DNA from: Candidatus Spechtbacterales bacterium
GTDB taxonomy: Bacteria; Patescibacteriota; Minisyncoccia; Spechtbacterales; 2-12-FULL-38-22
Direction of reading: 5' to 3'
Assembly (NCBI GenBank): GCA_040900345.1
Contig: JBBDZE010000008.1
Span: forward strand, 1 to 45,933
Length of the DNA: 45,933 nt
Shown: positions 25,380 to 45,324 of the stretch, piece by piece
Layout: each line of letters begins with the position of its first letter
Position numbering within the stretch: the first letter of the stretch is position 1
Made by a program: the position numbers and the translations under genes
Notes under the pieces: model-generated
What the model was told of the DNA's origin: nothing
What the model saw: only the letters and a program-made list of their open reading frames with translations
The model's database searches: none

Positions 25380-25386
25380 CGCGACA

Positions 25387-29203: not shown

Positions 29204-30328
29204 ATGCTTTATATGAAGCTGAGCGGATCCAGACGCATCCTTACTGCCGGGGTCATTCTTTTGTGTGTTCTTGACGGATTGTTGTTTGTCGTTTTGCAAC
29301 GTCTCGATAGCTCACAAGCTTCTGACGTTTCCGGTCCGCTCTACAAGACGCTTACCGTCGAACAGTTGAAGGTGTTGGCCCCCGACCCCTTTGTCTACCT
29401 GCACAACAATCTTGAAGAAATCGTACTGTATCAGGATGCGGACGGCGCTTTGCACTTAACGAGAGAAGCTTTCCGGCAAGGAATGATCGATCGATTTGGC
29501 TGCCACACGCTTGCTCACGAAATCGGCCATCACGCAGCTTCAGAGGGGCATTTTGAGCACATTGAGCTTCACATCTCTGATGCCAATATTAACTTTTGCG
29601 GAGGAGGTTTTATGCACGGGGTTGAAGGAGGACTTGCCGAATCGGGCCATCCGGGGTTTCGCGAAGATCTCTACTACTTCTGTACGCTTGCGCTTCCCGT
29701 GGCCACCACCTATGCTGCGTGCTATCACGGGGCGGGGCACGCATTTGTTGATCGTTCTCAAGACTTCCCTGAAGCGCTTCAGCTCTGTGATACCCTTATT
29801 ACGGACGAGCGCATTACCGCAACAGCTTGCTATCAGGGCGTTTTTAGTGAGCATATAGAAAGGATGCAAAGGGAAGGTGTCGAGAATAGCGAGTTGCTTG
29901 GATTCTGCGCTTCAATACGCCAAGCACTCCAAAATATCTGCGCACTAGAGCTGAATGGCCTGAACATTACCCCAGCATCGACGAATGCAGTAGTTGAAGA
30001 AACATTGAAGATTTGCGTGTACAACGACTACCCTGCAACGGTTAAGACGGGATGTTTGGAGAGCGTTTCTTGGGCTGCTGCAGATAGAGATGTATGGCAA
30101 CGAGGAAAGATTGTGCTCCTGCCTGTTATTTTCAATTTTCCTCAGGAGTTTCGGCGAGTATACATAGTGGCAACGACAAATAGGATGAAGGAGCACCTTA
30201 AGGACGGGACGGTAAATACGAATAGTTCGTTTTGTCAGGCATTTCCATCTCAGGACGATCAGCAGTTTTGCCGAGAGCGCATACTCACAAAAGACAACAG
30301 GGCTTTTACACACACCGCATTCCCATAA
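29204..30328 (+). CDS. Signal-anchored Cys-pair/His-motif helical-repeat protein (uncharacterised family, here called CHR), paralog 1
   Basis: TM anchor ILTAGVILLCVLDGLLFVVL; motifs GCHTLAHEIGHHA, CGGGFMHGVEG, ACYHGAGHAF, ACYQGVFSEH and further paired Cys. Confidence 0.8.
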   Translation: MLYMKLSGSRRILTAGVILLCVLDGLLFVVLQRLDSSQASDVSGPLYKTLTVEQLKVLAPDPFVYLHNNLEEIVLYQDADGALHLTREAFRQGMIDRFGCHTLAHEIGHHAASEGHFEHIELHISDANINFCGGGFMHGVEGGLAESGHPGFREDLYYFCTLALPVATTYAACYHGAGHAFVDRSQDFPEALQLCDTLITDERITATACYQGVFSEHIERMQREGVENSELLGFCASIRQALQNICALELNGLNITPASTNAVVEETLKICVYNDYPATVKTGCLESVSWAAADRDVWQRGKIVLLPVIFNFPQEFRRVYIVATTNRMKEHLKDGTVNTNSSFCQAFPSQDDQQFCRERILTKDNRAFTHTAFP

Positions 30329-30715: not shown

Positions 30716-31987
30716 ATGATTCGCATGTTGACCACACCACTTTTCAGCAAAACATTTTTTTCTCGAAAGAAAATAGTGATCATTGGCCTTTTCGGTATAG
30801 CGAATGTGCTCCTTTTTGTTTTGTGGTTGGCGATGGGGGCTGTTCCTGGCGAGGTGCGCGATGCAAGAAGCAGCGAGGAGCTTCCTGAAATCCAGGAGTT
30901 GCAGGACACGAACCGCAACTTTGGAGAGCTGTCGGGCTATTTCAGTGCGCTTGCAGAGAACAAAGGGGGTGGGTATGCCTTTGCCGTCTTGCGCGCGGTA
31001 GAACTTCCACCCAACATCGACACGCACCTCTTGGGGCATGTCGTGGGGGACATTTTGTACAAGCAGAAAGGCCTGGAGGGCATCAACGTGTGCACCCACG
31101 ATTTTAGAAATGCCTGCTCCCATTCTATTGTCGTTGGGTTATTTAATGAGTTTGGCGAAGGTGCATTAGATGATATCGCGGCAGCCTGTCGCCAGGCGCC
31201 GGGAGGCAAGGGAGCCTATACCATGTGCTTTCATGGTTTGGGGCATGGCGTGTTGGCCTTTGTCGAGTACGAGATGCCCGACGCCATTGCGCTGTGCGAG
31301 AAAACGGGCACCGCTCTCTATCAGAACCGTGAATACATCGAATGCGTTGGCGGCACCGTTATGGAGATGATGGCGGGCGTCCACGACCCCGAGCTCTGGA
31401 GAGAAAAGTCGAAAAAGTATTTCCGTCAGGACGACCCGTTGTACCCCTGCACGAGTGATTTCATGCCTGATGAGGCGCGGGAGACGTGTTATATGTATCT
31501 CACGCCCCATCTGCTCGAATATGTGGGCGGCAATCCTGAACATTTTACGACGGCAAATTTTCGAGACGCATTTGCCTTATGCGACAAAGCCGATCAGAGG
31601 AGGCTACAGTTGGCGTGCAAGGCAAGTTTTGGGAAAGAGTTCATCGGGCTGATAAAGAACCGGGATATCCGCGACGTTGCAAACCTCAGCGAGGAAGAAG
31701 CGCGCACAATGTACGAGTGGTGTCTTTTGGCGGGGGATCGGGCTGGCAGTGCAGCGTGTATCGATAGCGCGATGGCGTCCCTGTACTGGGGCGGCGAAAA
31801 CGATCGGTCGGGCGCTGTTCGATTTTGCGGAGTCGTTGATGATGGGGAGTTCCAAACGATCTGTTTTAACAACCTGATAGGTGCGGTGCAGTATTATGTA
31901 CATGACCGCGCATACTACGAATCATTTTGTTCGGAGCTGCCATCTGCATATACCTCGGCATGCAAAGAGCGCCTCTTACAGAACTGA
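30716..31987 (+). CDS. CHR-family protein, paralog 2
   Basis: TM anchor IVIIGLFGIANVLLFVLWLAMG; HLLGHVVGDILY, CTHDFRNACSHS, MCFHGLGHGVLAF, ECVGGTVMEMM. Eight C-x8-16-C pairs in total. Confidence 0.8.
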   Translation: MIRMLTTPLFSKTFFSRKKIVIIGLFGIANVLLFVLWLAMGAVPGEVRDARSSEELPEIQELQDTNRNFGELSGYFSALAENKGGGYAFAVLRAVELPPNIDTHLLGHVVGDILYKQKGLEGINVCTHDFRNACSHSIVVGLFNEFGEGALDDIAAACRQAPGGKGAYTMCFHGLGHGVLAFVEYEMPDAIALCEKTGTALYQNREYIECVGGTVMEMMAGVHDPELWREKSKKYFRQDDPLYPCTSDFMPDEARETCYMYLTPHLLEYVGGNPEHFTTANFRDAFALCDKADQRRLQLACKASFGKEFIGLIKNRDIRDVANLSEEEARTMYEWCLLAGDRAGSAACIDSAMASLYWGGENDRSGAVRFCGVVDDGEFQTICFNNLIGAVQYYVHDRAYYESFCSELPSAYTSACKERLLQN

Positions 31988-32132: not shown

Positions 32133-33215
32133 ATGCGCTTTTTCGCCATCGTATCGGCTCATAAATTGAACAAGAACCGCTTGGTGCTTGTTGTTGGTAT
32201 AGGGCTTGTTGTAGTGTTAGTCGGAGTTGCATCCGCATTGTATTTCGGAGAGAGGGGTTCAGATGAACAAACCAGTATTGGTGCACAAGACAGGCCGGCA
32301 AACGATTATGCCTTGGAGGCAAAATGGTGGGCAGAAAGAATCGACACGATCGGCCCCGAAGATGCATACGAAGAGTTCAAGCACGCCTATCAACAGGAAA
32401 GCTATGCGAGGCAACACACCCTTGCGCATATCTTTGGAAGGGTACTCTATGAGAAGGCTGGCATCGAAGGTTTTGCAATATGTGATAGCGCTTTTGCATT
32501 TGGTTGTTATCATAGTTTTTTTGGCACCTCTATCAAGGCTGACGGAATGAGCATTGTGAAGGAACTCGATGGAGCATGTAGGCGCAGGTGGGGAGGCGCC
32601 TACATGCCCTGTCAGCATGGTATAGGCCACGGGATACTCAGTTCGTTAGGGGCAAATCACCTCCAAGACGCTCTCGATGTATGCTCAACAATCATGGAAC
32701 AGCCTACCGGGGGGTGTGCGAGCGGTATCTTTATGGAATATAATTTCAGGACGATGAGTGCTGTGTGGGGGGAAGGGGAGAGAACATTAGTACGTCCCTT
32801 ACGGGATGAGCGTGACGTGCATATGCCATGTGCGCTTTTACCGCAGCAATATACATCAGCATGTTATTATGAACAGCCACAGTGGTGGGAGTTTGTTCTT
32901 GGCGAAGATTACGAGCGGAGTAAAGCTCTCTGTGCGGAAATTACCGAGGAGGATGCTCGAGGAGCTTGCTTTCGTGGGGTTGGGCACTACAGAGCGAATA
33001 ATGGATACGACATAGAAAAAGTGCACGATGTATGCGGCACTATTGCCGCGGGGATGCCAGAGCAGCTTTTTTGCTATCAAGGCGCGGCATGGCTTTTTCT
33101 TGCAAGACAAAACGGGGGAGCGGATACAGCTCGTGCCCTATGCGAGGCCATCAAGAGAGAAGAAGACCGAGCGGTATGCTCGGCGAGTATAGAAGGTAAC
33201 ATATTTAGATTATGA
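32133..33215 (+). CDS. CHR-family protein, paralog 3
   Basis: TM anchor LVLVVGIGLVVVLVGVASALYF; HTLAHIFGRVLY, GCYHSFFG, PCQHGIGHGILS, GCASGIFMEY. Seven C-x7-12-C pairs (14 Cys). Confidence 0.8.
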   Translation: MRFFAIVSAHKLNKNRLVLVVGIGLVVVLVGVASALYFGERGSDEQTSIGAQDRPANDYALEAKWWAERIDTIGPEDAYEEFKHAYQQESYARQHTLAHIFGRVLYEKAGIEGFAICDSAFAFGCYHSFFGTSIKADGMSIVKELDGACRRRWGGAYMPCQHGIGHGILSSLGANHLQDALDVCSTIMEQPTGGCASGIFMEYNFRTMSAVWGEGERTLVRPLRDERDVHMPCALLPQQYTSACYYEQPQWWEFVLGEDYERSKALCAEITEEDARGACFRGVGHYRANNGYDIEKVHDVCGTIAAGMPEQLFCYQGAAWLFLARQNGGADTARALCEAIKREEDRAVCSASIEGNIFRL

Positions 33216-34363
33216 GCAAGACGATACGCACCATTGCTGTTGCGTTGCAAAAAAAAGTGATTTTTATGGCGAGGGGGGAAAAGAGTTTTGTGATAGCTGG
33301 TCTTTTTTTGGCAGGGTTGTTCGTGGCAGGAATAATCGTTATGGTTGACGGCTCGCAACCCCGCAGCCAAAGCGCGCCTTCGCAAGAAGAATTTCTCGAG
33401 ACAATGGAGGCGCAGTATCCTTCGGTTTTTGCCGGTATACGAGACAAGTTATCAGAGGTTGTTGAGGACTACGGTATAGGCGGGGCCCTTGCAATTTCGC
33501 TGAAGGCTTTTGGCGCGGGGGATATTTCTATGTACGAGTGCCATCTCCTTTTTCATACCATCGGACACAGTGCGGAGATTTATTACAACAGCGATGACAT
33601 GAAAATCGTGCAGCACGATAGCAACAACTGCGAGTTCGGCTATCGTCACGGCGTGGAAGCTCAAATCGTGGCACGAAATAGTGAACATTTTCAAGAAGAA
33701 TTACACCGTTTTTGTGACACCCTCATAGCCCATACCTCCTATCCAGATTGCTATCATGGCGCGGGACACGGCTTGGTGAAAGGAACACTCGATGTCCAAA
33801 AGACGCTCGAGCTCTGCGATTCGCTCCAAGAAGGGCGTTCCCGGTCAGTGTTTAGCTGTTATACCGGAGCTTTTAGCGAGGTCACGAATATCGTGGGAGG
33901 AGTGGACAGCGAGACGGGGTACCGGCTTACGGGAACTTCGCCGCTTACGCTCGGGGGACTAGAGGTGATGGAATACTGCGCTTCATTTACGGGAGAGGAG
34001 CATCAGCAGGCATGTGCTTACGAACTGAATGGATTAACGTTTTCTCTTAATACAACCGAGGAGCATCTTCGAAACGAATTATCGCGATGCGCGCAAGGAA
34101 GCTACGCCGAAGACCTCAAAGAAGCCTGTACGTACAGTGTTTCAGCCGTATTTGCCCAGCACATGCTGCCAAGAACGCAGTCGCTTTCGCCTTCGCATGA
34201 ACTGCTAGAAACCCTCACGCCGGGCCTGCGAGAAGCGTACATCATGGGTTCGGGTACGGAGATGAAGCAATTTATTATCAGCGGACAGAACCTAGACTGG
34301 AATGTCTTTTGCAATTTTTTTGAAGAGGATGAGCACGCAACGTGTGTCGCCATATTTGAGTAA
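33212..34363 (+). CDS. CHR-family protein, paralog 4
   Basis: ATGA start/stop overlap with the upstream gene. TM anchor FVIAGLFLAGLFVAGIIVMV; ECHLLFHTIGHSAEIYY, CEFGYRHGVEA, DCYHGAGHGLVKG, SCYTGAFSEV. Confidence 0.8.
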   Translation: MSKTIRTIAVALQKKVIFMARGEKSFVIAGLFLAGLFVAGIIVMVDGSQPRSQSAPSQEEFLETMEAQYPSVFAGIRDKLSEVVEDYGIGGALAISLKAFGAGDISMYECHLLFHTIGHSAEIYYNSDDMKIVQHDSNNCEFGYRHGVEAQIVARNSEHFQEELHRFCDTLIAHTSYPDCYHGAGHGLVKGTLDVQKTLELCDSLQEGRSRSVFSCYTGAFSEVTNIVGGVDSETGYRLTGTSPLTLGGLEVMEYCASFTGEEHQQACAYELNGLTFSLNTTEEHLRNELSRCAQGSYAEDLKEACTYSVSAVFAQHMLPRTQSLSPSHELLETLTPGLREAYIMGSGTEMKQFIISGQNLDWNVFCNFFEEDEHATCVAIFE

Positions 34364-34368
34364 GCGTT

Positions 34369-34776
34369 ATGCAGAAGAACAGTATACAGCACAGGGCAAC
34401 CAAAGGAGGCGTCGCAGGAATTGTTCTTGTGTGCATTCTTTTGGGCGGAACGTACGTTGTGATTGATCGACAAGAGGCGACGGTCGGGAAGGAGGACAAG
34501 CATGCCACTCATATCGTACGGGTTACGGATACAGCATTTGTGCCCGCAGAGCTGCATGTCCGTTGGGGAGATACGGTGCAGTTTATCACCGAGCGCGGTA
34601 CCGCGTTCTGGCCCGCCTCTGACCTTCACCCCATACACGAAGACTACCCCGATTTTGACGCACGAAGGCCGATTCCCCCAAATGAATCATGGACCTTTAC
34701 ATTTACCCAGAAGGGCAGTTGGAGCTACCACAATCACTTGCACCCTTTCTTTAGGGGCAGGATAGTTGTTGAATAG
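34369..34776 (+). CDS. Signal-anchored stand-alone cupredoxin-like domain protein with a His cluster and no ligand Cys (here called HCu), copy 1
   Basis: TM anchor VAGIVLVCILLGGTYVVI; FVPAELHVRWGDTVQFITERGTAFWPASDLHPIHEDYPDFD...PNESWTFTFTQKGSWSYHNHLHPFFRGRIVVE. Confidence 0.8.
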   Translation: MQKNSIQHRATKGGVAGIVLVCILLGGTYVVIDRQEATVGKEDKHATHIVRVTDTAFVPAELHVRWGDTVQFITERGTAFWPASDLHPIHEDYPDFDARRPIPPNESWTFTFTQKGSWSYHNHLHPFFRGRIVVE

Positions 34777-34783
34777 GCGAGGC

Positions 34784-36001
34784 ATGCGTTGGAAACACAT
34801 CTCGATAAAGAAAAAAGGGTTATGGTTTGTCCTTGGCGTTGAGGCCGTCTTTGTTTTGGCGCTTGTTCTCGTTGGGGTGTCTTTCCCTATAGATAAGGAA
34901 AAGACGGCAGCGGAAGAGGCATCCTTGGCAATATACGCAGAGGGAGTGATTGAGGCATGCAGCAGCGTTCGGTACCGGCCGGCCTGCTACGATGAAGAAA
35001 TTCCCAAGCTCATGGATGCTCTGTCCATGGAAGAAGCATTTGCTGTAACCAAGCTCGTGCAAGAACAGGATGAGTCGTACTGGTACTGCCATGTGTTGGC
35101 CCATGCATTAGGAGCGCGCGAAACGGCAAAAGATCCTTCCCGGTGGATAGACGTCATTGCGCGGGTGCCAAGTCACATGTGTTCAAATGGCGGCATCCAT
35201 GGAGCGTTTCAAGAACGGTTTCGATCAGAAACGCTTGCACCAGAAGAAGTAGAGCGGGTATTGCCGGATCTGCAAAAGGCATGCGAGCCGCGTCCCTCAT
35301 GGAGTCCCACCAGCATGGAGCAGGCAACCTGCTACCATGCGCTCGGTCATCTCGCCATGTATATTACCGGAGGAGATATTCACCGGGCGGTGGCAGTATG
35401 CGAGGATGTTGCACGGCAGACGAGTGCGGATTTTACCCCGTTGTGCTACGACGGGGCCTTTATGCAGATTTTTCAACCGCTTGAGCCGGAAGACTTTGCT
35501 CTTATTGAGGGCAAACAGCCCGCCAAAGAAGAACTTGCGTCATATTGCCATCAATTCTCAGGGGCGCAGTACGCGTCCTGTTGGAGCGAAGGGTGGCCGC
35601 TCTATTCGGCCGAAATACAGAATGCTGACGGCCTGACAGCATTCTGTTCGGCCGTTCCTGAAGGACCCGATCGAAACCTGTGCTTTACCGACATATTTTA
35701 CGTGCTGACGGCTCAGTTCGAGTTCGATCATGCCAGTATCGTGGGATTGTGTAGCAGCATGCCGGAAGCGCGTAAGGGGCAATGTTTTGCCAGCGCTGCA
35801 TCGCGCTTTATTGAGACGGATGCACAGCTTACCGATCGGGCAGTAGCGCTTTGTGCGGCAGCAACCCGAGAGACGGAGCAAAGAAAATGCTACGAAGAAC
35901 TCGTATTTTACGCCTCATATAATTTTAAAAAAGGGTCAAAGGAATTCGAGCATCTCTGTGGCAGCCTTCCGATGTCTTATCGAGAAGGGTGCTATCGTTA
36001 G
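34784..36001 (+). CDS. CHR-family protein, paralog 5
   Basis: ATG lies 8 nt after the upstream stop (a TTG at 34766 is also possible). TM anchor LWFVLGVEAVFVLALVLVGV; YCHVLAHALGARE, MCSNGGIHGAF, TCYHALGHLAMY, LCYDGAFMQIF, plus 5 further Cys pairs. Confidence 0.8.
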   Translation: MRWKHISIKKKGLWFVLGVEAVFVLALVLVGVSFPIDKEKTAAEEASLAIYAEGVIEACSSVRYRPACYDEEIPKLMDALSMEEAFAVTKLVQEQDESYWYCHVLAHALGARETAKDPSRWIDVIARVPSHMCSNGGIHGAFQERFRSETLAPEEVERVLPDLQKACEPRPSWSPTSMEQATCYHALGHLAMYITGGDIHRAVAVCEDVARQTSADFTPLCYDGAFMQIFQPLEPEDFALIEGKQPAKEELASYCHQFSGAQYASCWSEGWPLYSAEIQNADGLTAFCSAVPEGPDRNLCFTDIFYVLTAQFEFDHASIVGLCSSMPEARKGQCFASAASRFIETDAQLTDRAVALCAAATRETEQRKCYEELVFYASYNFKKGSKEFEHLCGSLPMSYREGCYR

Positions 36002-36004
36002 GCT

Positions 36005-37537
36005 ATGAATAACAGAAAGAAAAAAAACGAGTTAGGGAAGAAAATGGAGACGGCGCTGAAGCGCTATAAGCGTTGGGGCGTGGCTGTGAGCATTATTTTG
36101 GGAGTGGCTAGTGGTGCTGCGCTTATTTTTGCAGCACCATTCTGGGGGGCGCAGGAATATCACGTTGAGCTGCGCGAAGATGGGTTCTATCCCGAGGAGC
36201 TTTCGGTGCAGGTAGGCGATACCGTAACCTTTAGCACAAGCAGGGGGCAGCTCTTTTGGCCTGCTTCGGCTCTTCATCCAGATCATTCTATTTATCCTGA
36301 GTTTGATCCTCAGCAGCCGATTAACCCCGGAAACTCCTGGAGTTTTCGCTTTGAAAAAGAAGGGAGATGGAAGTATCATGATCATCTCCATCCCAATTAT
36401 TCAGGAGTCATCACCGTAGGCACCTCTGGCAGCAGTATCGTGGCGCTCGCCCAGAATTGTGTCGAGGTCTCTCGGGACCAAAAAATGGCCTGCTGGGACC
36501 AGCAGCTGGAGGCGACGCTTAAGGCAGAAGGATTGGACGCAGCATTTGATTTATTTGTTCATCTCTACCAAACAGAGCCTGATATTCCTAAGGCCTGCCA
36601 CGAATGGGGGCACGTTTTGGGGGAGGCCGCGTACGATTTATATATGAGCGACGAAGATTTTAAACTCGTTCCAGAAACGGCCTACTGCGGATACGGTTTT
36701 TATCATGGATTTTTGGAAGAATTTGTCCGGGATACGGGAGGAAATTTCGCTGAGATACAGCAGTTCTGCACCTCAGTGTCGGAAGAACTAGGCGAGCAGC
36801 TCTTCTCAGTATACCGAAACTGTGTGCACGGCGTAGGTCACGGGACGACCGCCTGGATTTTGGAGGACCCTTCGTATTGGGGTGACTTTCAAAAGGTGGC
36901 AGATGCAGGTCTTGGCGTTTGTGAAGATACCTTTGGAGGAACAAATGAGATCCGTGACTGCTATGACGGCGTATTCAATGAGCTCTATCTCGATGTACTG
37001 AATAGTCAGTACCGGTTCAACTTTACGCAGTTTAAAACGATGGGCGATCCGTTTTGGTATTGCAGAAGGGTAGCTGAGCGGCACAAAGAGTCGTGTTACT
37101 TTGAGTTTATTGGTCTTACCTATACTTTTTTCAACTATGACGTGAAGGCAGCAACGCGTTATTTTCTAGACACGGTGGATAATCTGGAAGAGTACGGAGA
37201 CACGACCATAGGAAAGCTTGCAGCTGATTATATGCAATTCGACATTGTCAAAGATAGTCATGAACCAAACGTTGAGGCATGCAGAATGGTCCCCGGATAT
37301 CTGTTCCAGGATTGTTTCTTTGGTATTACAAACGGTTTTATACAGCATGGGGAGCCGGAAAATATGCACGAGAAAGGGCTGCATTTTTGCGGGGAGGGCT
37401 ATTTAACAGCGAGAGAAAAAACACTGTGCTACCAGAATATGTTCGGGCTTCTACGGGCAAACTATAGCACAGAAAAGCTTAGGCAGGTTTGTTCAACGGT
37501 AGGCGCAGAAGTGTGGCGCTCATACTGTCCACTCTAA
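36005..37537 (+). CDS. Fusion protein: signal anchor plus HCu cupredoxin-like domain plus CHR module (paralog 6)
   Basis: GFYPEELSVQVGDTVTFSTSRGQLFWPASALHPDHSIYPEFDPQQPINPGNSWSFRFEKEGRWKYHDHLHPNYSGVITVG is followed by ACHEWGHVLGEAAYDLY, AYCGYGFYHGFLEEF, NCVHGVGHGTTAW, DCYDGVFNELY... Confidence 0.85.
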   Translation: MNNRKKKNELGKKMETALKRYKRWGVAVSIILGVASGAALIFAAPFWGAQEYHVELREDGFYPEELSVQVGDTVTFSTSRGQLFWPASALHPDHSIYPEFDPQQPINPGNSWSFRFEKEGRWKYHDHLHPNYSGVITVGTSGSSIVALAQNCVEVSRDQKMACWDQQLEATLKAEGLDAAFDLFVHLYQTEPDIPKACHEWGHVLGEAAYDLYMSDEDFKLVPETAYCGYGFYHGFLEEFVRDTGGNFAEIQQFCTSVSEELGEQLFSVYRNCVHGVGHGTTAWILEDPSYWGDFQKVADAGLGVCEDTFGGTNEIRDCYDGVFNELYLDVLNSQYRFNFTQFKTMGDPFWYCRRVAERHKESCYFEFIGLTYTFFNYDVKAATRYFLDTVDNLEEYGDTTIGKLAADYMQFDIVKDSHEPNVEACRMVPGYLFQDCFFGITNGFIQHGEPENMHEKGLHFCGEGYLTAREKTLCYQNMFGLLRANYSTEKLRQVCSTVGAEVWRSYCPL

Positions 37538-39060
37538 TGGGGAACCCTTGGATGCGAATGCGCTTATTCCCAACAGCATTGGCAAAAATACGTACACGAG
37601 GAAGGGGTACCGCTCTTGCTACGCTAGGGGTTTTTGTTCTTGCCCTTCTGGTAGTTGCTTTTGCGCTCATTGCTCGACACGCTACGCCTACGGTGTCCCT
37701 CTCTCCTGAGGGCTTTGTGCCTCGTGAACTGACTATTCAGCTTGGCGATACCGTGACGTTTGTCAATAAAAGCAATCGCCCCATCTGGCCCGCTTCCAAC
37801 ATCCATCCCGACCACTCCATCTACCCAGAGTTTGACCCCAAGCGTCCCTTAGAACCCGGCGAAGAATGGTCGTTTACCTTCACCAAAGAAGGAAGGTGGC
37901 GCTTCCATGACCATCTTAACTCGCTCCATGAAGGAGTAGTTACGGTGGGGGATGGCACGGCGACACGAGAGGGGGAGGATGGCCGGTGCGATGACGCCGC
38001 CAATAAAGTGGCGTGCTGGGGCGAGCGCGTTGAGTATGCTCTCGCCGGTAATAATGTAGAAGCAGCTTTCAATGTGGTAGCCGAGCTCTATGAAAAAGAG
38101 CCCCAGCTTGCCGGAGGCTGTCATGGCTATGCGCATCTCATTGGCGAAAAAGCATATGACCTTTTCTCTCAAGGGTATGACTTTGAGCTGACGCCAAAGA
38201 CGGCATACTGCGGGTACGGCTTTTTCCACGGCTTCATGGAAACGTTGTTGCATACGACGGGGGATCTTGCGGAGGCGCGTGCCTTTTGTGCCTACGTTAA
38301 TGAGAAGCTTCGCTACGTATCAAGCGGAGCGGCCAGCGCATGTAACCACGGCATCGGGCACGGGGCGGTAGATGGCAGCGATCCGCGGGCGTGGGGAGAT
38401 CCCTATGCCATGATGAAGCCGGGGATGGACTTGTGCCGTGCGCTCGCAAAAGAGGACAAGCCCTCGTATGGCAGCCCGCTGTATCTGTGCATCACGGGGG
38501 TCTATAACGCCCTTGAAATACTTTCAATGGATGATCGATACCGCCTTGAAGCTTTACGAGAAGACCCGTTTGCTTTTTGCGAGCGAGAACAGGTTGCGTA
38601 TCAAGAAGGATGCTACACCAACATGCTACCCGCGCTCTTGCGCCTAACGAATAACGACGTTATGCAAAGCGCCCGCCTCGTCGAGGCCATACCCGAGGAA
38701 GGCGACAGCTACGAAATCCGTAGCCTCGTTATACTTTCGCTTACCCATGAATATATTCGTCTGCACATGAACGACGCAAACTACACAGAAGAGGGGATCG
38801 CTCTGTGTCGGCAGCTTGCCGATCGCTCACACCTTCCGTGTATTCGCGGTCTCTCCGGCGGGCATATGAAATATGGAAAGCCGGGGGAAGAATACGTAAA
38901 GATGATTGCTTTTTGCACAACGCCAACCATGCGCCCCGACGAGCGCGATGCCTGTTTTGAATATGTCTTTCCGTTATTGCGTCTTTGGTACCCGCAAGGA
39001 AAAGTGGAAGAAATCTGCACCCGTGTCGAACTGCCCTATCGTTCGTACTGCCCCCGATAG
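37537..39060 (+). CDS. Fusion protein: signal anchor plus HCu domain plus CHR module (paralog 7)
   Basis: TAATG stop/start overlap at 37535-37539. GFVPRELTIQLGDTVTFVNKSNRPIWPASNIHPDHSIYPEFDPKRPLEPGEEWSFTFTKEGRWRFHDHLNSLHEGVVTVG is followed by GCHGYAHLIGEKAYDLF, AYCGYGFFHGFMETL, ACNHGIGHGAVDG, LCITGVYNALE... Confidence 0.85.
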   Translation: MGNPWMRMRLFPTALAKIRTRGRGTALATLGVFVLALLVVAFALIARHATPTVSLSPEGFVPRELTIQLGDTVTFVNKSNRPIWPASNIHPDHSIYPEFDPKRPLEPGEEWSFTFTKEGRWRFHDHLNSLHEGVVTVGDGTATREGEDGRCDDAANKVACWGERVEYALAGNNVEAAFNVVAELYEKEPQLAGGCHGYAHLIGEKAYDLFSQGYDFELTPKTAYCGYGFFHGFMETLLHTTGDLAEARAFCAYVNEKLRYVSSGAASACNHGIGHGAVDGSDPRAWGDPYAMMKPGMDLCRALAKEDKPSYGSPLYLCITGVYNALEILSMDDRYRLEALREDPFAFCEREQVAYQEGCYTNMLPALLRLTNNDVMQSARLVEAIPEEGDSYEIRSLVILSLTHEYIRLHMNDANYTEEGIALCRQLADRSHLPCIRGLSGGHMKYGKPGEEYVKMIAFCTTPTMRPDERDACFEYVFPLLRLWYPQGKVEEICTRVELPYRSYCPR

Positions 39061-39161: not shown

Positions 39162-39707
39162 ATGCGAGAAGGAGCACTGTTTCTTATCACCGTTACCCTT
39201 ATGACCATTGGCACAGCGCTCATGGTGCTTCCTCAGGGGGTATTTGCTCACGGCACCGGCGCCTCCTTCGAAGCAGACGTCGATCAGTACCGGATTGATG
39301 TCGGCTATGAGCCGGAACAGATGAGCGTCGACATCGCTACGCTCTTTGATTTTTTACTGCAGGATCGGCAGACGGGCGAAGACGTAGCCTTTAGCGACGT
39401 GTGGGTGCGCATCTCCCAAGGCAACCAAACAGTGTTTGCGAGCGGGGTTGCACGTCCAAGGTTTGGGACCACCACGTTAACCTACCTCTTCCCACGAGCA
39501 GGGAGCTACGAGCTGTCGGTTCGGTTCCAAAATCAGGGAGAAGCGATTGTTGAAAGTACCTTCCCCCTTACCGTCAAGGAGGGTGTCAGCGATATCAAAA
39601 CACTATCAGAAAAGAAATCTACGATTCTCCCCGTGACACTTGCTTTTGCCGGTGGGGCAGTGATCGCAGGGGCAGCCACCCTGTTTATGCGACGCCCCAA
39701 GAAATAG
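39162..39707 (+). CDS. Exported beta-rich protein with a predicted N-terminal His after signal cleavage and a C-terminal TM anchor (uncharacterised)
   Basis: The signal peptide ...LMVLPQGVFA|HGTGASFEADVDQYRIDVGYEP would leave His as residue 1. The body has alternating beta-strand-like sequence. The C-terminus is ILPVTLAFAGGAVIAGAATLFMRRPKK. Confidence 0.7.
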   Translation: MREGALFLITVTLMTIGTALMVLPQGVFAHGTGASFEADVDQYRIDVGYEPEQMSVDIATLFDFLLQDRQTGEDVAFSDVWVRISQGNQTVFASGVARPRFGTTTLTYLFPRAGSYELSVRFQNQGEAIVESTFPLTVKEGVSDIKTLSEKKSTILPVTLAFAGGAVIAGAATLFMRRPKK

Positions 39708-39725: not shown

Positions 39726-40175
39726 ATGCATACAAAAAATCTTGCTATTATTGGTCTTCTCATTCTGATTGCAACGGCTATCGCTCTTGGGGTGGTTCTT
39801 ATGGTGCGTCCTGAGCAGAGCGGGGACCTCAGCGCAGGCAAGGATGCCGATCAGCAAACACGAGAGCGTCACCCAGGCTTTGCAATTGATGCCTCCGCCG
39901 CGCAGGAACGTATTCGCATTACCCAGGAGGGATTTTTTCCGGAGGAGATTACCGTACAGCGAGGAGATAGTGTTGTCTGGATAAATGAAGCGAGCGAGTA
40001 TCGCTGGCCCGCCTCGAACCTGCATCCTACCCATTCAATCTATGCCGAATTCGATCCACTTGAGCCGCTTGCTCCCGGAGAGAGTTGGAGCTTTCGGTTC
40101 GAACAAGAGGGAAGCTGGCAGTACCATGACCATTTGCGTCCCAGTAAGGAGGGGGTAATCATTGTGGAGGGGTAG
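39726..40175 (+). CDS. Stand-alone HCu cupredoxin-like protein, copy 2
   Basis: SD-like AAGGGGG upstream. TM anchor LAIIGLLILIATAIALGVVLMV; GFFPEEITVQRGDSVVWINEASEYRWPASNLHPTHSIYAEFDPLEPLAPGESWSFRFEQEGSWQYHDHLRPSKEGVIIVE. Confidence 0.8.
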   Translation: MHTKNLAIIGLLILIATAIALGVVLMVRPEQSGDLSAGKDADQQTRERHPGFAIDASAAQERIRITQEGFFPEEITVQRGDSVVWINEASEYRWPASNLHPTHSIYAEFDPLEPLAPGESWSFRFEQEGSWQYHDHLRPSKEGVIIVEG

Positions 40176-40278: not shown

Positions 40279-40806
40279 ATGAAAAAGGAAAACTTATTTT
40301 TTGCCGTTGCTATACTTGTTTTGGCGGGGGTTGCCGTTGCGCTAGGATACGCGATTTATCAAACAAGCGTGGGAGGAAATAACGCCACGGATGAAGACGC
40401 TCCTTCCGGTAATGGCCAAACGAACGAAACGCTTACCGATGAAGAAATTGTTCTTCAGCCGCCCCAGGAAGACGCAAGTCCCGAAGAAAAAGATGCTCAT
40501 TTTTCCGCGGCTCAACGTATTGCGGTGGAAGGAAATTCGGTAACGCTTACTGAGTGCAAGGCCGATCCGCTCGTGTTAGCGCTGAGCATGGATGACCGCA
40601 TTACCCTGGTCAATGAAAGCGACGTTGCGATAGAAATAAGTCGTGATGCAGGCGTATTTCTGTACCGTGTGCCGGCAAACGACTCCCGAACAGTTGAGAC
40701 GGACTTCGCAGTACACGGGAATGGCCTGTATGGTTACCGTTGTGGGGCGGAGGAAAATGATGCGTTCGGTGATGGAGTGGGCGGTTTCTTCTTGATTGGA
40801 GGATAA
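40279..40806 (+). CDS. Signal-anchored protein with an acidic linker and a degenerate cupredoxin-like beta-sandwich (no HPxH/HxH motifs)
   Basis: TM anchor LFFAVAILVLAGVAVALGYAIY; EGNSVTLTECKADPLVLALSMDDRITLVNESDVAIEI...YRVPANDSRTVETDF...GLYGYRCG resembles the Cupredoxin_1-type strand pattern. Confidence 0.55.
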   Translation: MKKENLFFAVAILVLAGVAVALGYAIYQTSVGGNNATDEDAPSGNGQTNETLTDEEIVLQPPQEDASPEEKDAHFSAAQRIAVEGNSVTLTECKADPLVLALSMDDRITLVNESDVAIEISRDAGVFLYRVPANDSRTVETDFAVHGNGLYGYRCGAEENDAFGDGVGGFFLIGG

Positions 40807-41247: not shown

Positions 41248-42786
41248 ATGCGTCCTATCTTTTTTCTTGCCAGCCTGAGCCTGTTCCTGGGTATGCCCCT
41301 TGTTGCCGCAGCGCATACCGGCGACACCGAAGGGGCGGTTATCCATATGGACGAAAGCGGGTATCGTCCCGCAGACGTTACCATACCGCAAGGGGAAACG
41401 GTAACATTCGAAAACGTCGCCGGACACTCCTGGCCGGCTTCCAATATCCACCCCACGCACCGGGCGTATCCTGAGTCGGGACTCGACCAATGCGGTACCA
41501 GCGAAGAAGAAAAAGCATTTGACGCGTGCCGCGCGCTTGCGCCAGGAGAGTCCTATACCTTTCGGTTCGTGCATGCCGGCGAGTGGCGCTACCATGATCA
41601 CCTTGATCCGCGCCTCAAGGGCACGATAATCGTTACCGCCGTTGAAGGGTTCGCCGAGGCACAGAGCACCGAGGACGAAGCGAAGCACAGCATCTGGCGG
41701 GCAGTAGGGGACTTTTTGGGTGGCACGTGGAGCTGGCTTACGGGTCTTTTTACGGAAGAACCAGATACGCCTGAAGGCATCACCTATCGGGAAGATATTA
41801 CGAGGGATGCCGATATCTTAGCGGGGGGCGCGGGAAGTGAGAGTATACTGTACTCGTACGTTCGAAAGTTCGGACCAGCGGCGGCCACAAAGCGTGCCAA
41901 CGAGCTGCAGGCCCACTACGGGAGCTGCCATCAAGCGGCGCATGATATCGGTAAGTACGCCTATCTGCTGGAAGGAGCGAAGGCGTTTCAGTCCTGTAGC
42001 GCCGAGTGTCATTCGGGCTGCTATCACGGGGCCACCGAAAATTACTTCCGCGACCAGGGCACGGCGAACCTTATCCAGAATATAAGCGTCATATGCAGCA
42101 GCGACCTCAATCCCTTTTTCTCTCATCAGTGCGTGCATGGTATCGGGCATGGGCTGATGGCCTGGGCAGATTATGACATTTTCGAAGCACTCGAAAACTG
42201 TAGCAGGTTGCCCAACTTACGCGAGTCCTGCTACACGGGTGCCTATATGGAAAACATCGTTGGCGGCCTTGCTTTCGATCAGGGACACATTACCGAGTAT
42301 CTAAGCGACGATCCCCACATGCCATGTAATGTTGTTGATGAGCCGTATAAATCTTCGTGCTACTTTTATCAAACATCCCGGATGGTGCAGCTGTTTGCGG
42401 GGGACTTTGGCAAGGTTGCAGACGCGTGTCTTGAGGCGCCAAAACAGTACCACGCTGTGTGCTTTCAGAGTATGGGGCGCGATGCAAGCGGACGGCACCC
42501 CGATCCGTCCGACGCCATTGCCGCATGCCGAAATGCGCCGGCCGGGACGAGCCAAACACAGTGCTTCATTGGGATTGCGCAAAATGCGCTGTGGGATGAA
42601 AGCGGGCAGGACGACGCCCTCGCATTGTGCGGTGCATTTGCAAATACCGAAGAGGAGGCGGTTTGTTACGGGACGCTTTTTGCGCGCGCCCCCGATGTTT
42701 TTTCAAGCGCAAGCAAACAGCGTGCCTTTTGCGATAAAATGAAACAGCCCTACCGCGACCAGTGTTATGCGCAGGCAGAGATTTGA
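41248..42786 (+). CDS. Secreted fusion protein: signal peptide plus HCu domain (with a Cys-containing insert) plus CHR module (paralog 8)
   Basis: Signal MRPIFFLASLSLFLGMPLVAAA|HTGD. GYRPADVTIPQGETVTFENVAGHSWPASNIHPTHRAYPE...GESYTFRFVHAGEWRYHDHLDPRLKGTIIVT is followed by SCHQAAHDIGKYAYLLE, CSAECHSGCYHGATENY, QCVHGIGHGLMAW, SCYTGAYMENI... Confidence 0.85.
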   Translation: MRPIFFLASLSLFLGMPLVAAAHTGDTEGAVIHMDESGYRPADVTIPQGETVTFENVAGHSWPASNIHPTHRAYPESGLDQCGTSEEEKAFDACRALAPGESYTFRFVHAGEWRYHDHLDPRLKGTIIVTAVEGFAEAQSTEDEAKHSIWRAVGDFLGGTWSWLTGLFTEEPDTPEGITYREDITRDADILAGGAGSESILYSYVRKFGPAAATKRANELQAHYGSCHQAAHDIGKYAYLLEGAKAFQSCSAECHSGCYHGATENYFRDQGTANLIQNISVICSSDLNPFFSHQCVHGIGHGLMAWADYDIFEALENCSRLPNLRESCYTGAYMENIVGGLAFDQGHITEYLSDDPHMPCNVVDEPYKSSCYFYQTSRMVQLFAGDFGKVADACLEAPKQYHAVCFQSMGRDASGRHPDPSDAIAACRNAPAGTSQTQCFIGIAQNALWDESGQDDALALCGAFANTEEEAVCYGTLFARAPDVFSSASKQRAFCDKMKQPYRDQCYAQAEI

Positions 42787-42878: not shown

Positions 42879-43301
42879 GTGATGTCTATCAAAACCATTA
42901 GTGTTGTCATTATTGTTGGCGTCGTAGCGTTGGTTTTGGCATGGGCGTTTTGGTTGAAGGGCGATACACCCGCCGAAGATGCTACCGACACCAACCAAGA
43001 GGAAACCATTGCCGGCGCCGAAAACAGCTCGATTATTATTCGCATGACGAGCAGGGGGTTTGAACCCAGCGAAGCCACCATCAAAAAGGGCGACTCGGTT
43101 GTCTGGATGAATGCCGACGACGAAGACCGCTGGCCGGCATCCGATACCCATCCTACTCACACGATCTATCCGGGCTTTGATCCGCAACAGCCCATTGCAG
43201 AGGGCGAAAGCTGGATTTTTGTTTTTGACCGTGTCGGCACGTGGGGCTTCCATGAGCATCTCAATCCAAGTTTGGGCGGCACAATAACGGTAACGGACTA
43301 A
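42879..43301 (+). CDS. Stand-alone HCu cupredoxin-like protein, copy 3
   Basis: TM anchor VVIIVGVVALVLAWAFWL; GFEPSEATIKKGDSVVWMNADDEDRWPASDTHPTHTIYPGFDPQQPIAEGESWIFVFDRVGTWGFHEHLNPSLGGTITVT. Confidence 0.8.
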   Translation: MMSIKTISVVIIVGVVALVLAWAFWLKGDTPAEDATDTNQEETIAGAENSSIIIRMTSRGFEPSEATIKKGDSVVWMNADDEDRWPASDTHPTHTIYPGFDPQQPIAEGESWIFVFDRVGTWGFHEHLNPSLGGTITVTD

Positions 43302-43303
43302 CA

Positions 43304-44218
43304 ATGGCAACACCCCCCCACCGGCCGATTGACAGCGCTACCATAGAAAATGCTTTGCGCAATCCTTTGCTCGTTGGTTTTGCCGCCGCGTTTCTTTTGG
43401 TGGTAGGAACACTGGGAGTTGTATGGGTGATGCTGGGCACCTCCCCCGAGCCAGAAGAACCCGAGCAGCAAAATGTCGGGCTGGGTAACCGCGTATTTAC
43501 ACCGGAAGATATTGAGGCGCAAAATCGCCGCCTTCTTGCCTATCAGCAGGAAGGTATTACCGACGAGCGTCTTGCAGAACTGCGTACCGAGCGCATCCGG
43601 TTGTTGTACTATGCCCACGAACACGATATCAGCATTTCAGACGAAGAATGGAATGAGCGTGTTGTAGCGCGCGCCGATCAGCGCCTTACCTTTGGCGCTG
43701 GATGGAGCGATGAGGAATGGCGCGATGTGCTATGGTGGCAGCTGCTACGGGAGAAACTGCAGGATGCCTCAAGCGGCGACCGTTTCGGCGAAGCAATGAG
43801 TATTCGCTGGGATGTCTATACCGAAGCACTGACACCAGCGGTTGTTGCCGCTAAGATGCCCGTCGGACGAGCGTATATCGAGAATGCCAGAGAGCAGCTG
43901 CAGGACGGAGAGATCGAGCGCCTCTACGACTTTTACCGCGACCACGCCAATCCTCAGAGGTTCAACCTGACCGATGGCAATGCGTATCAGCTGCAGTATA
44001 ACGGGTGGGACCCGACCACGCAGGAATATGCATACTTTGACCCTATGACCAGCAACGAGGCAGTTCTCAGCGCAGCCGCAGCGTCGTTTCCCCTTATCAG
44101 CTCGGTGCAGTGCACGGAAGGGGGCTGCAATCTCTATCACATAGTAGAAGGAGACGAGCAGCTCATTGCTGACGAAGAAGCCATTTCCGGTATTCGTTTT
44201 TCACCGATTCTTTTCTAG
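43304..44218 (+). CDS. Signal-anchored hypothetical protein, helical and Glu/Arg/Trp-rich, probably co-transcribed with 42879..43301
   Basis: The start is 2 nt after the upstream stop. TM anchor LLVGFAAAFLLVVGTLGVVWVML. I recognise no motif; there is a weak resemblance to SurA/PpiD N-terminal chaperone-type helices only. Confidence 0.65.
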   Translation: MATPPHRPIDSATIENALRNPLLVGFAAAFLLVVGTLGVVWVMLGTSPEPEEPEQQNVGLGNRVFTPEDIEAQNRRLLAYQQEGITDERLAELRTERIRLLYYAHEHDISISDEEWNERVVARADQRLTFGAGWSDEEWRDVLWWQLLREKLQDASSGDRFGEAMSIRWDVYTEALTPAVVAAKMPVGRAYIENAREQLQDGEIERLYDFYRDHANPQRFNLTDGNAYQLQYNGWDPTTQEYAYFDPMTSNEAVLSAAAASFPLISSVQCTEGGCNLYHIVEGDEQLIADEEAISGIRFSPILF

Positions 44219-44236
44219 TCTCGCTACACAACAGAA

Positions 44237-44265
44237 GCAAAACCGCGCCAAAGGCGCGGTTTTGC
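44237..44265 (+). terminator. Hairpin terminator after 43304..44218
   Basis: GCAAAACCGCGCC-aaa-GGCGCGGTTTTGC, with a 13-bp perfect stem and T-rich 3' arm. Confidence 0.65.
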
Positions 44266-44274
44266 TTCGAGATG

Positions 44275-44343: not shown

Positions 44344-45324
44344 ATGTTCTCAACGATCTGCCGAAGGGCAGCCCTAGCTGTCTTTCTGGCCATTATCGTG
44401 TCGGTGGCAGGTATTGCTCCGGCACACGCCGACCATGACGCGATGGTTCGCATCAGCCCCCTGCCGGCTGAAGGGCTGGGTGCCGGCATCTATACCGGCA
44501 TCATCGAGCAGCAGGCGTCGTTGGAGGCGCTCGAAGCAGCGCTCGCGCGCTACAACACCAATCTCGAACACCCCCTCGGACAGGGCGGCTGCGGTCTGCA
44601 GTCGGTCTGGAGCGTCCGCAACGGCCGCATCATCGGCGCCATTTTGGGGGCTCCCGTCTTTGTCAACCGGGAGTTCCTGGGGCACTTCCCAGGCGGCACG
44701 TTATCCGCAGGCGAAATCGTGATTGTCGTCTGCACATTCTTGCCGCCCGGCACGGGAGGCCCGGGGCAAGGTGGAGGAACGGTCGTGGTGCCGCAAGGAT
44801 GCGATCCCTGGCCGGAGGGCGTGGTGCCCGTATACCATGCACTGGAGCTTGCGGAGCTGGAAAGGGCTTGCCTGCGCTTGTTTGATGGGCCGGACGACGA
44901 AGACATCCCTGCTGGCTCGCGCGATGCGCTTGTCGTGCGGTCGCTCCTCATCGGCAACGATGGGAGCATTCTCGCACTGAGGTCGGCTATCGCGACCTAT
45001 TTGGGCAATCTGGTCCACGAGATGTGCCATTTGCGGGAAGACCTCGAAATAGCCCGCCTTGGCACGCAGGGGAACTGGTTGAGTACGCCAGCGGGCATTG
45101 ATTTCATCGTCCGCACCAAGTGGCATCGCGAAAACTATTTCTGGGTGGGTGACGAGGACTGGGCGCCCAACCCCGTCGAGGACGCGGCCAATGCCTGCGC
45201 CTCGTTCTACCTGGGGCACTTTGAGCAGCCCTATCCACCTGGGTTTGCTCGGTTCCCGGTTGAAGAGATTGAGGCCCGCGCCGTTTGGGCCCGTGAGTGG
45301 CGTCCGCCGCTTCGCGAACGCTAG
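44344..45324 (+). CDS. Secreted protein with an HExxH (zincin-like) motif (uncharacterised)
   Basis: Signal peptide AALAVFLAIIVSVAGIAPAHA|DHD; LVHEMCHLRED contains HEMCH; SD-like AAAGGGGG upstream. Confidence 0.7.
   Translation: MFSTICRRAALAVFLAIIVSVAGIAPAHADHDAMVRISPLPAEGLGAGIYTGIIEQQASLEALEAALARYNTNLEHPLGQGGCGLQSVWSVRNGRIIGAILGAPVFVNREFLGHFPGGTLSAGEIVIVVCTFLPPGTGGPGQGGGTVVVPQGCDPWPEGVVPVYHALELAELERACLRLFDGPDDEDIPAGSRDALVVRSLLIGNDGSILALRSAIATYLGNLVHEMCHLREDLEIARLGTQGNWLSTPAGIDFIVRTKWHRENYFWVGDEDWAPNPVEDAANACASFYLGHFEQPYPPGFARFPVEEIEARAVWAREWRPPLRER

Follow-up and report, generated by a model that had tools for sequence, protein, structure and literature searches.

Where the same two protein modules occur both as neighbouring genes and as single polypeptides within one gene array, the question arises whether they work together or merely travel together. 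It is raised here by a stretch of 45,933 nucleotides from a Candidatus Spechtbacterales bacterium (contig JBBDZE010000008.1 of assembly GCA_040900345.1, positions 1 to 45,933), referred to below as the window. Between 29.2 and 43.3 kb, the window carries a co-directional block of genes on the + strand, all of whose products have one hydrophobic anchor or a signal peptide at the N-terminus. Two modules recur in this block, namely HCu, of about 90 amino acids, and CHR, of about 330–360 amino acids. They were delimited by all-against-all BLASTP and by hidden Markov models (HMMs) built from the window paralogs, which yielded six HCu modules (three stand-alone and three N-terminal in fusions) and eight CHR modules (five stand-alone and three fused). 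The HCu modules of the window share 36–56% pairwise identity (BLASTP, E 1e-20 to 1e-35), a similarity well beyond chance.

The original prediction for this region started from a stand-alone HCu gene (34369..34776) that is directly followed by a CHR gene (34784..36001) and by two HCu-CHR fusions (36005..37537 and 37537..39060), with a third fusion at 41248..42786. It read this arrangement as a sign that the modules work together as a complex or as a redox or metal relay. All of these open reading frames (ORFs) are present on the + strand with the proposed layout, according to BLASTP and the HMMs. The occurrence of separate and fused modules in one cluster is confirmed and extends to four more stand-alone CHR genes upstream (29204, 30716, 32133 and 33212; genes are named here by their first nucleotide). 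The stand-alone HCu genes 39726 and 42879 do adjoin cluster members, but the neighbour of the former, 39162, belongs to a different family, Y, and not to CHR. The array is at most a putative single operon. Intergenic gaps measure −4 to +7 nt across 33212–39060 and 100–440 nt elsewhere in the array, and promoter and terminator scans gave no signal above the shuffled background.

The comparative analysis supports a functional link between HCu and CHR at the family level, beyond chance co-location. This part of the prediction stands on the census, on the two orders of fusion and on one orthologous group with split and fused forms, while the idea of a blue-copper redox relay is unlikely given the absence of the cysteine ligand. 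The wider reading developed below is that HCu and CHR are coupled extracytoplasmic, membrane-tethered metal modules of one Patescibacteria-specific system, with HCu docking on CHR for handover or sharing of a metal. We consider this reading about evenly poised between right and wrong.

Fused, adjacent and separate modules across genomes

The domain architectures were surveyed from the side of each module. For CHR, one genome per species was scanned with an alignment of CHR alone, and the ORFs of the resulting 77 loci, essentially all from metagenome-assembled genomes of Patescibacteria, were annotated with HMMs. These loci hold 312 CHR-alone, 97 HCu-CHR and 42 HCu-alone genes, besides 26 partial CHR genes. 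The modules are thus separate in some genomes and fused in others, as a Rosetta-stone link demands, and all three architectures named in the original prediction recur. The CHR genes stand in tandem arrays of 2 to 13 or more.

For HCu, a scan of metagenomes with the HCu motif gave 80 loci with 105 HCu genes, 46 of them fused to CHR and 59 stand-alone. Among the latter, the nearest CHR gene is no more than 300 bp away for 29 and no more than 3 kb away for seven, and 21 are uninformative owing to short flanks. Only two genes have at least 3 kb of flanking sequence on each side and no CHR, so that 82 of the 84 informative HCu genes are fused to CHR or lie no more than 3 kb from it. Whether the modules co-occur elsewhere at all was a point on which the prediction depended; they recur together in 157 loci outside the window, and named homologues come from Yanofsky-, Kaiser-, Sung-, Doudna- and Giovannonibacteria.

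An exhaustive profile search with HCu against 1.84 billion representative sequences returned 15,246 clusters of cupredoxin type at E <= 1e-3, of which 321 reach E <= 1e-30. A word-indexed homologue search with a stand-alone HCu gave only four proteins, which reflects the limit of the index. Architectures were sorted for the best 150 of the 15,246 clusters, with 152 sequences classified. The best 150 representatives include 67 stand-alone HCu proteins and 33 proteins with CHR, 29 with HCu first and four in the reverse order; two more reverse-order fusions occur in the metagenome loci. Ordinary multi-cupredoxin repeats without the HCu motif make up 31 of the 152 classified sequences, and the remaining 21 are two-HCu proteins or combine HCu with other or unidentified regions. 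Apparent tandem 'HCu arrays' of 5–10 domains turned out to be ordinary cupredoxin repeats lacking the WPAS..HP.H motif and were dropped from the architecture census. More elaborate combinations include the double fusions HCu-CHR-HCu-CHR of P0245 (959 amino acids) and P0247 (936 amino acids), the CHR-CHR-HCu-HCu protein P0249 (1082 amino acids) and the HCu-HCu tandem P0248 (227 amino acids). CHR was seen only alone or with HCu, and CHR is the dominant partner of HCu despite forms with fn3, PG_binding_1, DUF5667, Kazal, family Y or a second HCu.

The linker between HCu and CHR has a median length of 14 residues, and 75 of 93 linkers comprise 30 residues or fewer. When fewer than 30 residues separate two domains, they are nearly always in contact (PMC529437), and a shared interface in the fusions is therefore likely. 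In AlphaFold2 (AF2) models, the predicted template-modelling score (pTM) of the fused protein 36005 (0.86) is no lower than that of the CHR-alone protein 34784 (0.85), which may lend weak support to a fixed arrangement of the two domains.

Clustering of 389 CHR modules separated orthogroups with very different fusion habits. Group A (113 members; window member 34784) and group B (48 members; 30716) contain no fusions, and group C (63 members; 32133) has four fused and 59 unfused members. Group D (69 members; 37537) is divided into 37 fused and 32 unfused proteins, 14 of the 20 proteins of group E are fused, and so are all 13 of group F, which is represented in the window by 36005; group E has no window member. 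These groups are stable across genera, at about 50% identity. Groups D, E and F form a fusion-prone super-clade together with g6 and g9, with 23–29% identity between groups. The CHR of fusion 41248 (g11) falls instead among groups B, C, g8 and g10, most of whose members are unfused. Fusions with HCu first therefore occur in at least two lineages, besides the reverse-order proteins.

Group E contains both fused and split forms. In five of its six unfused cases an HCu-bearing ORF lies directly upstream: a stand-alone HCu gene in loci L043, L048 and L073, and a fusion of family Y with HCu in L057 and L076, each gene having its own anchor. Group E is thus a true case of fission or fusion of orthologous HCu and CHR parts. 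The overlap or abutment of the HCu and CHR genes in L043 (5743–6123 and 6059–7336), L048 and L073 further suggests translational coupling.

The separate pair in the window is a different matter. With only 7 nt between 34369 and 34784, the pair might be a single fused gene that was split by a frameshift in sequencing or assembly. This explanation was checked and is ruled out for practical purposes. The stop codon of 34369 (TAG, 34774–34776) is followed 7 nt later by the start of 34784, which has a Shine-Dalgarno-like GGCGAGG run in front and a basic and hydrophobic anchor of its own at its N-terminus (MRWKHISIKKKGLWFVLGVEAVFVLALVLVGV, residues 10–39). No fused protein has such an anchor segment in the linker, where it would have to lie. 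The homologues listed for 34784 number 119 and have identities of about 50%; of these, 118 measure 388–433 amino acids, consistent with stand-alone proteins, and one has 585 (P0152, with an additional PF00535 match); none of the 113 members of the orthogroup is fused. The C-terminus of 34369 coincides exactly with the usual end of stand-alone HCu proteins. The split is therefore real. It is not, as had been supposed, a fission product of the neighbouring fusions, since 34784 carries a CHR of the orthogroup that diverges most, with 15–19% identity to the others, and is never fused. Orthology of the split parts to fused proteins is found for group E and not for 34369/34784.

Several observations weigh against a close coupling of HCu and CHR. 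About 75% of CHR genes have no HCu in cis, and the long loci L055 and L058 consist of CHR arrays with no HCu within 10 kb. Unfused members of group D have an anchor directly followed by CHR, and an HCu gene lies upstream of only one of them, so HCu is accessory and not obligatory. Taken together, these three facts indicate that CHR works without a dedicated HCu. The window pair itself is the weakest example of the link, since it is not conserved as a pair: HCu precedes a group-A CHR in only two of 111 cases (the window and L056), and it lies directly downstream in 12. No transporter, reductase or known copper or iron pathway gene occurs among the neighbour families that were annotated as conserved. 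HCu is, moreover, moderately promiscuous: with its full histidine motif it is joined to fn3, to the peptidoglycan-binding domain PG_binding_1, to DUF5667 or to Kazal in some of ten representatives scanned against Pfam, and it occurs in fusions with family Y. A generic 'surface toolbox' could therefore explain a part of the association.

Taken to its end, this line of thought makes HCu and CHR independent secreted building blocks that are shuffled within an expanding surface-protein island, sharing an address and having no direct functional or physical coupling. Besides the foreign fusion partners, to which family Y has to be added, the 67 stand-alone HCu proteins among the top 150 representatives, the three quarters of CHR genes that lack HCu and the variable gene order within arrays speak for such shuffling. 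Against it stand the prominence of CHR, which is by far the commonest partner of HCu (33 of the top 150, compared with a handful for any other), and the 82 of 84 informative HCu genes fused to CHR or near it. Fusion has also taken place repeatedly, in either order and in more than one CHR lineage, the splits in group E retain adjacency and gene order, and the linkers are short. A shared address alone is therefore considered unlikely, although it is the least improbable of the alternatives weighed here.

Fold and conserved residues of HCu and CHR

On the evidence of sequence comparison and structure prediction, HCu belongs to the cupredoxin fold superfamily. It matches amicyanin (1sfd) with E 1.5e-8 for the single sequence of 34369 and E 1.8e-9 for the profile. 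The AF2 model of 36005 has eight strands in residues 51–138, and Foldseek aligns this HCu part with the cupredoxin 5fc9 of N. maritimus at a target-normalised TM score of 0.81 and with amicyanins and plastocyanins at 0.64–0.80. HCu sits on the edge of the Pfam model PF13473 (Cupredoxin_1): the six window copies score 19.3–25.3 bits, under the gathering threshold of 27 bits, and a precomputed PF13473 match is present on some database homologues.

What sets HCu apart is its set of conserved residues. In a HMMER alignment, an Asn of 34369 falls on the ligand Cys92 of amicyanin, and across 244 HCu domains from 158 loci (238 of them motif-bearing) this position holds Asp in 206, Asn in 26 and Cys in none. 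The His and Met positions downstream of it are variable, and the ligand loop is predicted to be reduced to a two-residue turn between strands 120–126 and 129–138 of the 36005 model. The score against the amicyanin model TIGR02657 is 28.8 bits, compared with a cut-off of 110.2 bits. HCu was therefore rejected as a type-1 blue copper protein. In place of the blue-copper ligands it has four invariant histidines in the motifs WPAS-x2-H-P-x-H and aromatic-H-[D/N]-H, corresponding to H91, H94, H125 and H127 in 36005 (99 homologues), and these motifs are present in 95–98% of the 244 domains. HMMER aligns the first of these histidines with amicyanin His56 and the Ser of WPAS with His53; no type-1 ligand is claimed as kept.

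These residues bear directly on the redox relay of the original prediction, in which HCu would be a classical blue-copper carrier that exchanges electrons with a redox centre in CHR. The homology to amicyanin and plastocyanin invites this idea, and cupredoxins have been proposed as electron carriers in bacteria of the Candidate Phyla Radiation (CPR), where those partnering NirK were assumed to be blue-copper electron shuttles (PMC5581439). A blue-copper relay by HCu is nevertheless unlikely from sequence, because the thiolate ligand is absent: not one of the 244 domains retains the type-1 Cys, the model shortens the ligand loop to a turn, and the subsequent His and Met positions are not conserved. 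Among the explanations of the HCu-CHR link, it ranks as very improbable.

The HCu profile also matches the N-terminal domains of multicopper oxidases over the region with their W-Y-H-x-H copper motif (Fet3p 1zpu, E 6.7e-4; two-domain laccase 2zwn, E 5.5e-4). Fungal laccases are matched as well, and all of these scores are sub-threshold, with E-values from 5e-4 to 0.09; Pfam Cu-oxidase_3 reaches E 0.007 and 17 bits, compared with a cut-off of 21 bits. HCu was rejected as a multicopper oxidase in its own right, as each protein has a single cupredoxin domain, no Cys and weak, partial matches only.

CHR has no match in Pfam, NCBIfam or the PDB sequences, the last queried both by single sequence and by a profile of 44 sequences. 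The AF2 model of 34784 is all-helical, with a predicted local distance difference test (pLDDT) value of 92.4 and the pTM given above, and that of 36005 (pLDDT 91.8) comprises a helix at residues 4–43, the beta-sandwich at 51–138 and helices at 144–507. A Foldseek search of the CHR-alone model against the PDB found generic HEAT/ARM solenoids only (best E 0.013, TM score at most 0.30), with importin-4, PP2A-A and SF3b155 as the best fold matches. The cysteines, 12–20 per protein, form C-x(7-18)-C pairs, with one pair to each helical hairpin, and the ectodomain of every array protein has an even number of them.

Across the 389 modules, at about 17–29% identity between orthogroups, universal conservation in CHR is limited to about ten Cys, three Gly and five His. 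These histidines follow the pattern H-x3-H / H / H-x3-H on three successive helices in the second to fourth repeats. Each is 95–98.5% conserved over all modules; of the six largest orthogroups, five show no exception and the sixth has 99–100% conservation, in fused and unfused proteins alike. In 36005 they correspond to H199, H203, H234, H275 and H279 (invariant in 99 homologues), and in 34784, which contains 18 Cys in all, to His103, His107, His139, His185 and His189. From the models and the alignments, we infer that CHR is a disulfide-pinned α-solenoid with a histidine-lined putative metal centre.

Solenoids of this kind can also be read in another way. CHR proteins may serve an episymbiont as adhesins for proteins or glycans, or in the interaction with its host, as a non-enzymatic surface array, with structural His and Cys (e.g., for Zn or as disulfide staples) and with HCu as a spacer or stalk. 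α-Solenoids are usually binding scaffolds, and the best fold matches are the HEAT/ARM repeats of importin and PP2A-A; the proteins are membrane-tethered and occur in large tandem arrays of paralogs, with no conserved metabolic partner genes nearby. On the other side, the orthogroups are stable across genera at their level of identity and not hypervariable, the universal residues of CHR apart from Cys and Gly are precisely the five histidines, and a stalk domain has no need of four invariant histidines. This explanation is judged improbable, somewhat more so than a mere shared address.

The array and its neighbours

The first gene of the block in the window, 29204..30328 (+), encodes a stand-alone CHR of the minor orthogroup g7 with an anchor at residues 10–36 (CHR HMM 364 bits, 93% model coverage), a paralog of 33212 with 28% identity (E 3e-37). 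It is followed by the stand-alone CHR genes 30716..31987 (+; group B, with 16 Cys as eight C-x(7-15)-C pairs), 32133..33215 (+; group C) and 33212..34363 (+; g7), the last of which overlaps its predecessor by 4 nt. The stand-alone HCu protein of 34369..34776 (+) has an anchor at residues 10–34 and the Cys-less cupredoxin at about 47–135, with the motifs WPASDLHPIH and YHNHLHP (HCu HMM 118 bits, PF13473 25.3 bits). The stand-alone CHR protein of 34784..36001 (+; group A) comes next. In the fusion 36005..37537 (+; group F), an anchor at residues 23–49 precedes HCu (about 51–138), the linker (about 139–150) and CHR (about 150–510).

The second fusion, 37537..39060 (+; group D), has two candidate starts, ATG at 37537 and TTG at 37489, both of which retain the membrane anchor. 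The 447-amino-acid database product P0080 is probably a shortened version of this gene, which would then begin at about Val61 and lack the anchor; the length of homologues, about 500 amino acids, speaks for the longer form. The third fusion, 41248..42786 (+), of the separate lineage g11, begins, unlike the other fusions, with a cleavable-looking signal peptide (..PLVAAA|HTGD..), and cleavage would leave an N-terminal His exposed. It also has a 14-residue insertion in HCu with an extra pair of cysteines, C82 and C94. Two stand-alone HCu genes complete the set, 39726..40175 (+; motifs WPASNLHPTH and YHDHL), the downstream partner of Y, and 42879..43301 (+), which was identified by BLASTP, the HCu HMM and motif alignment.

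Between 43304–44218 and 44344–45324 lies a hairpin on the − strand (44234–44268) with a perfect 16-bp GC-rich stem and a 3-nt loop. It is the strongest terminator-like structure in the region and likely marks the end of a transcription unit with 42879–44218. The other genes of the window include UvrD, PNPase, a CCA-adding enzyme, a type IV secretion system (T4SS)-pilin-like gene and Lnt; together with the taxonomy of all homologues, they point to a genome of Patescibacteria of the Paceibacteria/Parcubacteria type.

In other genomes the arrays often follow the order Z, CHR of group B, CHR of group C, CHR of group A, HCu or HCu-CHR genes, Y and HCu. Family Y, represented in the window by 39162..39707 (+), occurs in 28 of 78 loci (e.g., L010 9143–9658 and L017 11972–12457) and consists of a signal peptide, an Ig-like (immunoglobulin-like) beta-sandwich and a C-terminal membrane helix. 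Its only invariant residues are Met1, His30 and Gly114. His30 follows the signal peptide directly (VFA|HGTG), is the predicted mature N-terminus and is found in 26 of 26 aligned members. Database matches of Y are weak only (filamin, PKD and YtkA), and it has no second invariant His and no match to the lytic polysaccharide monooxygenase (LPMO), CopC or YcnI families. The layout recalls N-terminal-His copper proteins of the 'histidine brace' type such as YcnI and CopC, yet the sequence does not match them.

Y adjoins a stand-alone HCu gene in many arrays, lying directly upstream in 11 cases and downstream in eight. In L057 (6184–7239, +) and L076 (11141–12172, +), the two are joined in a single ORF that encodes the Y domain, two membrane helices and HCu. 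As Y and HCu are separate neighbours in the window (39162/39726), these ORFs constitute a second link of the Rosetta-stone type for HCu.

Family Z (40279..40806, +, in the window) occurs in 27 loci, and elsewhere than in the window it frequently opens the array. Its members have an anchor, a low-complexity linker rich in Thr, Ser and Asn, and a C-terminal domain of about 90 amino acids with two conserved Cys (..C..P.V....YGY.C..). One relative of Z has a weak match to Cupredoxin_1 (E 0.018).

The conserved neighbours of the arrays are Y, Z, a DsbA-like thioredoxin, a PMT_2-type glycosyltransferase, a TPR protein and housekeeping genes. The DsbA-like gene lies within 10 kb of CHR arrays in seven loci (e.g., L017 15983–16708, −), which fits oxidative folding of the Cys-rich ectodomains. 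Just upstream of the array in the window are a gene for an Lnt-like apolipoprotein N-acyltransferase (22630–24294, +; CN_hydrolase and LNT_N) and a gene for a protein with about ten membrane helices and no Pfam match (26689–28443, +), which is similar in size to the PMT_2-type glycosyltransferase found near arrays in seven other loci. These neighbours hint at lipidation or glycosylation of surface proteins.

Also upstream of the array are the anchored paralogs 24312–25379 and 25276–26427 (+), with 39% identity (E 1e-73), sub-threshold Pfam SURNod19 matches only (E 0.004 and 0.04) and nothing comparable among PDB sequences. As the two ORFs have about 100 nt in common, the start of one of them is uncertain. 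A further gene pair, absent from the window, is interspersed in the arrays of nine loci (L004, L005, L016, L023 and others), sometimes in several copies. It encodes a single-anchor protein of about 160 amino acids and a polytopic membrane protein of about 320 amino acids, without Pfam matches (e.g., L005 2503–2994 and 2966–3940).

Known systems, proposed mechanism and significance

A close parallel to the HCu-CHR arrangement is EfeO/EfeM of the EfeUOB(M) iron-uptake systems. There, too, a Cys-less extracytoplasmic cupredoxin-like domain stands N-terminal to an all-helical domain, which in this case binds metal, and the pair likewise occurs in fused and split forms. EfeO (cupredoxin-M75) is fused in E. 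coli, and split or M75-only forms are the EfeO and EfeM of P. syringae (PMC9174327). E. coli EfeO (7wgu) is also the top Foldseek match of the fused 36005 model (E 2e-5), but with a TM score of 0.15–0.22 and a root-mean-square deviation of 22–23 Å this match is driven by the cupredoxin part. M75 consists of two four-helix bundles and has the metal motif HxxE, and CHR differs in conserving five His and Cys pairs and in having no Pfam match. An M75- or EfeM-like identity of CHR was therefore rejected on the low TM score of the EfeO match; EfeO, EfeM and imelysin are also absent from the 50 best PDB matches of the CHR-alone model. No EfeU/FTR1 permease or EfeB peroxidase is found among the annotated conserved neighbour families of the arrays.

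Amicyanin and plastocyanin share fold and sequence homology with HCu. They differ from it in the Cys ligand, which is replaced by Asp or Asn, in the C-terminal ligand loop, which is shortened in HCu, and in the Met and second His, which are not conserved; HCu has a new set of four histidines and is membrane-anchored or fused, not soluble. FtrB, the Cup-II cupredoxin of FtrABCD, also lacks the His-His-Cys site; it binds Cu2+ via Asp and His, has the conserved acidic Fe-binding residues E84, E86 and E93 and was proposed as a ferroxidase (PMC11966278). Compared with this published description, HCu is equally Cys-less and has four invariant histidines. No FtrA, FtrC or FtrD occurs among the annotated conserved neighbour families.

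With multicopper oxidases (laccase, Fet3p and ascorbate oxidase), the likeness lies in the W-Y-H-x-H region of the N-terminal domain, which the HCu profile covers. Their motifs HPxHLH and HCH bind copper at a domain interface, and the H-P-x-H and H-[D]-H of HCu resemble them. HCu differs in lacking the complete L1–L4 set and the type-1 Cys, in having a helical solenoid as its partner instead of another cupredoxin, and in scoring below the family thresholds. CHR, for its part, resembles HEAT/ARM proteins in its predicted right-handed stack of helical hairpins, and its predicted single disulfide per hairpin recalls the disulfide-bridged Sel1-like repeats of the Helicobacter Hcp proteins. The HEAT, ARM, TPR and Sel1 families are not known to have the invariant five-His cluster, and CHR has no Pfam match to them.

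The coupled metal modules introduced at the outset would operate as follows. CHR would be the core module, built of helical hairpins with one disulfide each, in which the five-His cluster may form a mono- or binuclear metal centre, most likely for copper. HCu would be the accessory module, whose four histidines may form an exposed type-2-like metal site at the usual blue-copper pole. It would be supplied in cis through the linker of about 14 residues or from a neighbouring gene, and would most likely dock on CHR and hand over or share a metal ion, acting either as a chaperone ('caddie') or as a second redox-active site. The parts of this mechanism that we infer for HCu-CHR are that a metal is bound, which metal it is, that separately encoded proteins touch and which way the metal would pass.

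A bolder version of this mechanism makes HCu-CHR a new class of copper enzyme, extracytoplasmic, rich in histidine ligands and found in Patescibacteria only. The nine invariant histidines of the His3–4 site of HCu and the CHR cluster would then combine into a composite or relay copper centre, and the arrays of paralogs would be surface oxidases or metal-capture proteins with which these host-dependent bacteria process host-derived substrates or scavenge metals. In function, such a centre would correspond to the copper cluster between the domains of multicopper oxidases, or to the pairing of tyrosinase and caddie protein, here on an unrelated helical scaffold. The enzyme is a speculative proposal that we think has a small chance of being correct.

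Domain-fusion links are known already, and so are proteins that combine a cupredoxin with a helical domain. Probably new are CHR, the four-His Cys-less cupredoxin subtype and the Patescibacteria-wide arrays, of which no description was found in the literature searched. The ultra-small Patescibacteria (Candidate Phyla Radiation) account for a large share of bacterial diversity, and most of their conserved surface proteins are without assigned function. CHR arrays occur in at least 77 species-level genomes of this kind, with five His and paired Cys as universal residues, so that even if metal binding is not confirmed, CHR is still a widespread and well-defined family. The link to a four-His, Cys-less cupredoxin gives the first functional handle on CHR and points to metal chemistry at the cell surface, probably involving copper. 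If metal binding proves true, CHR would represent a new copper-site scaffold, and HCu would join EfeO/EfeM as a new case of a cupredoxin that has turned from an electron carrier into a partner domain. Such surface metal chemistry would take place in organisms that are thought to have a minimal redox metabolism.

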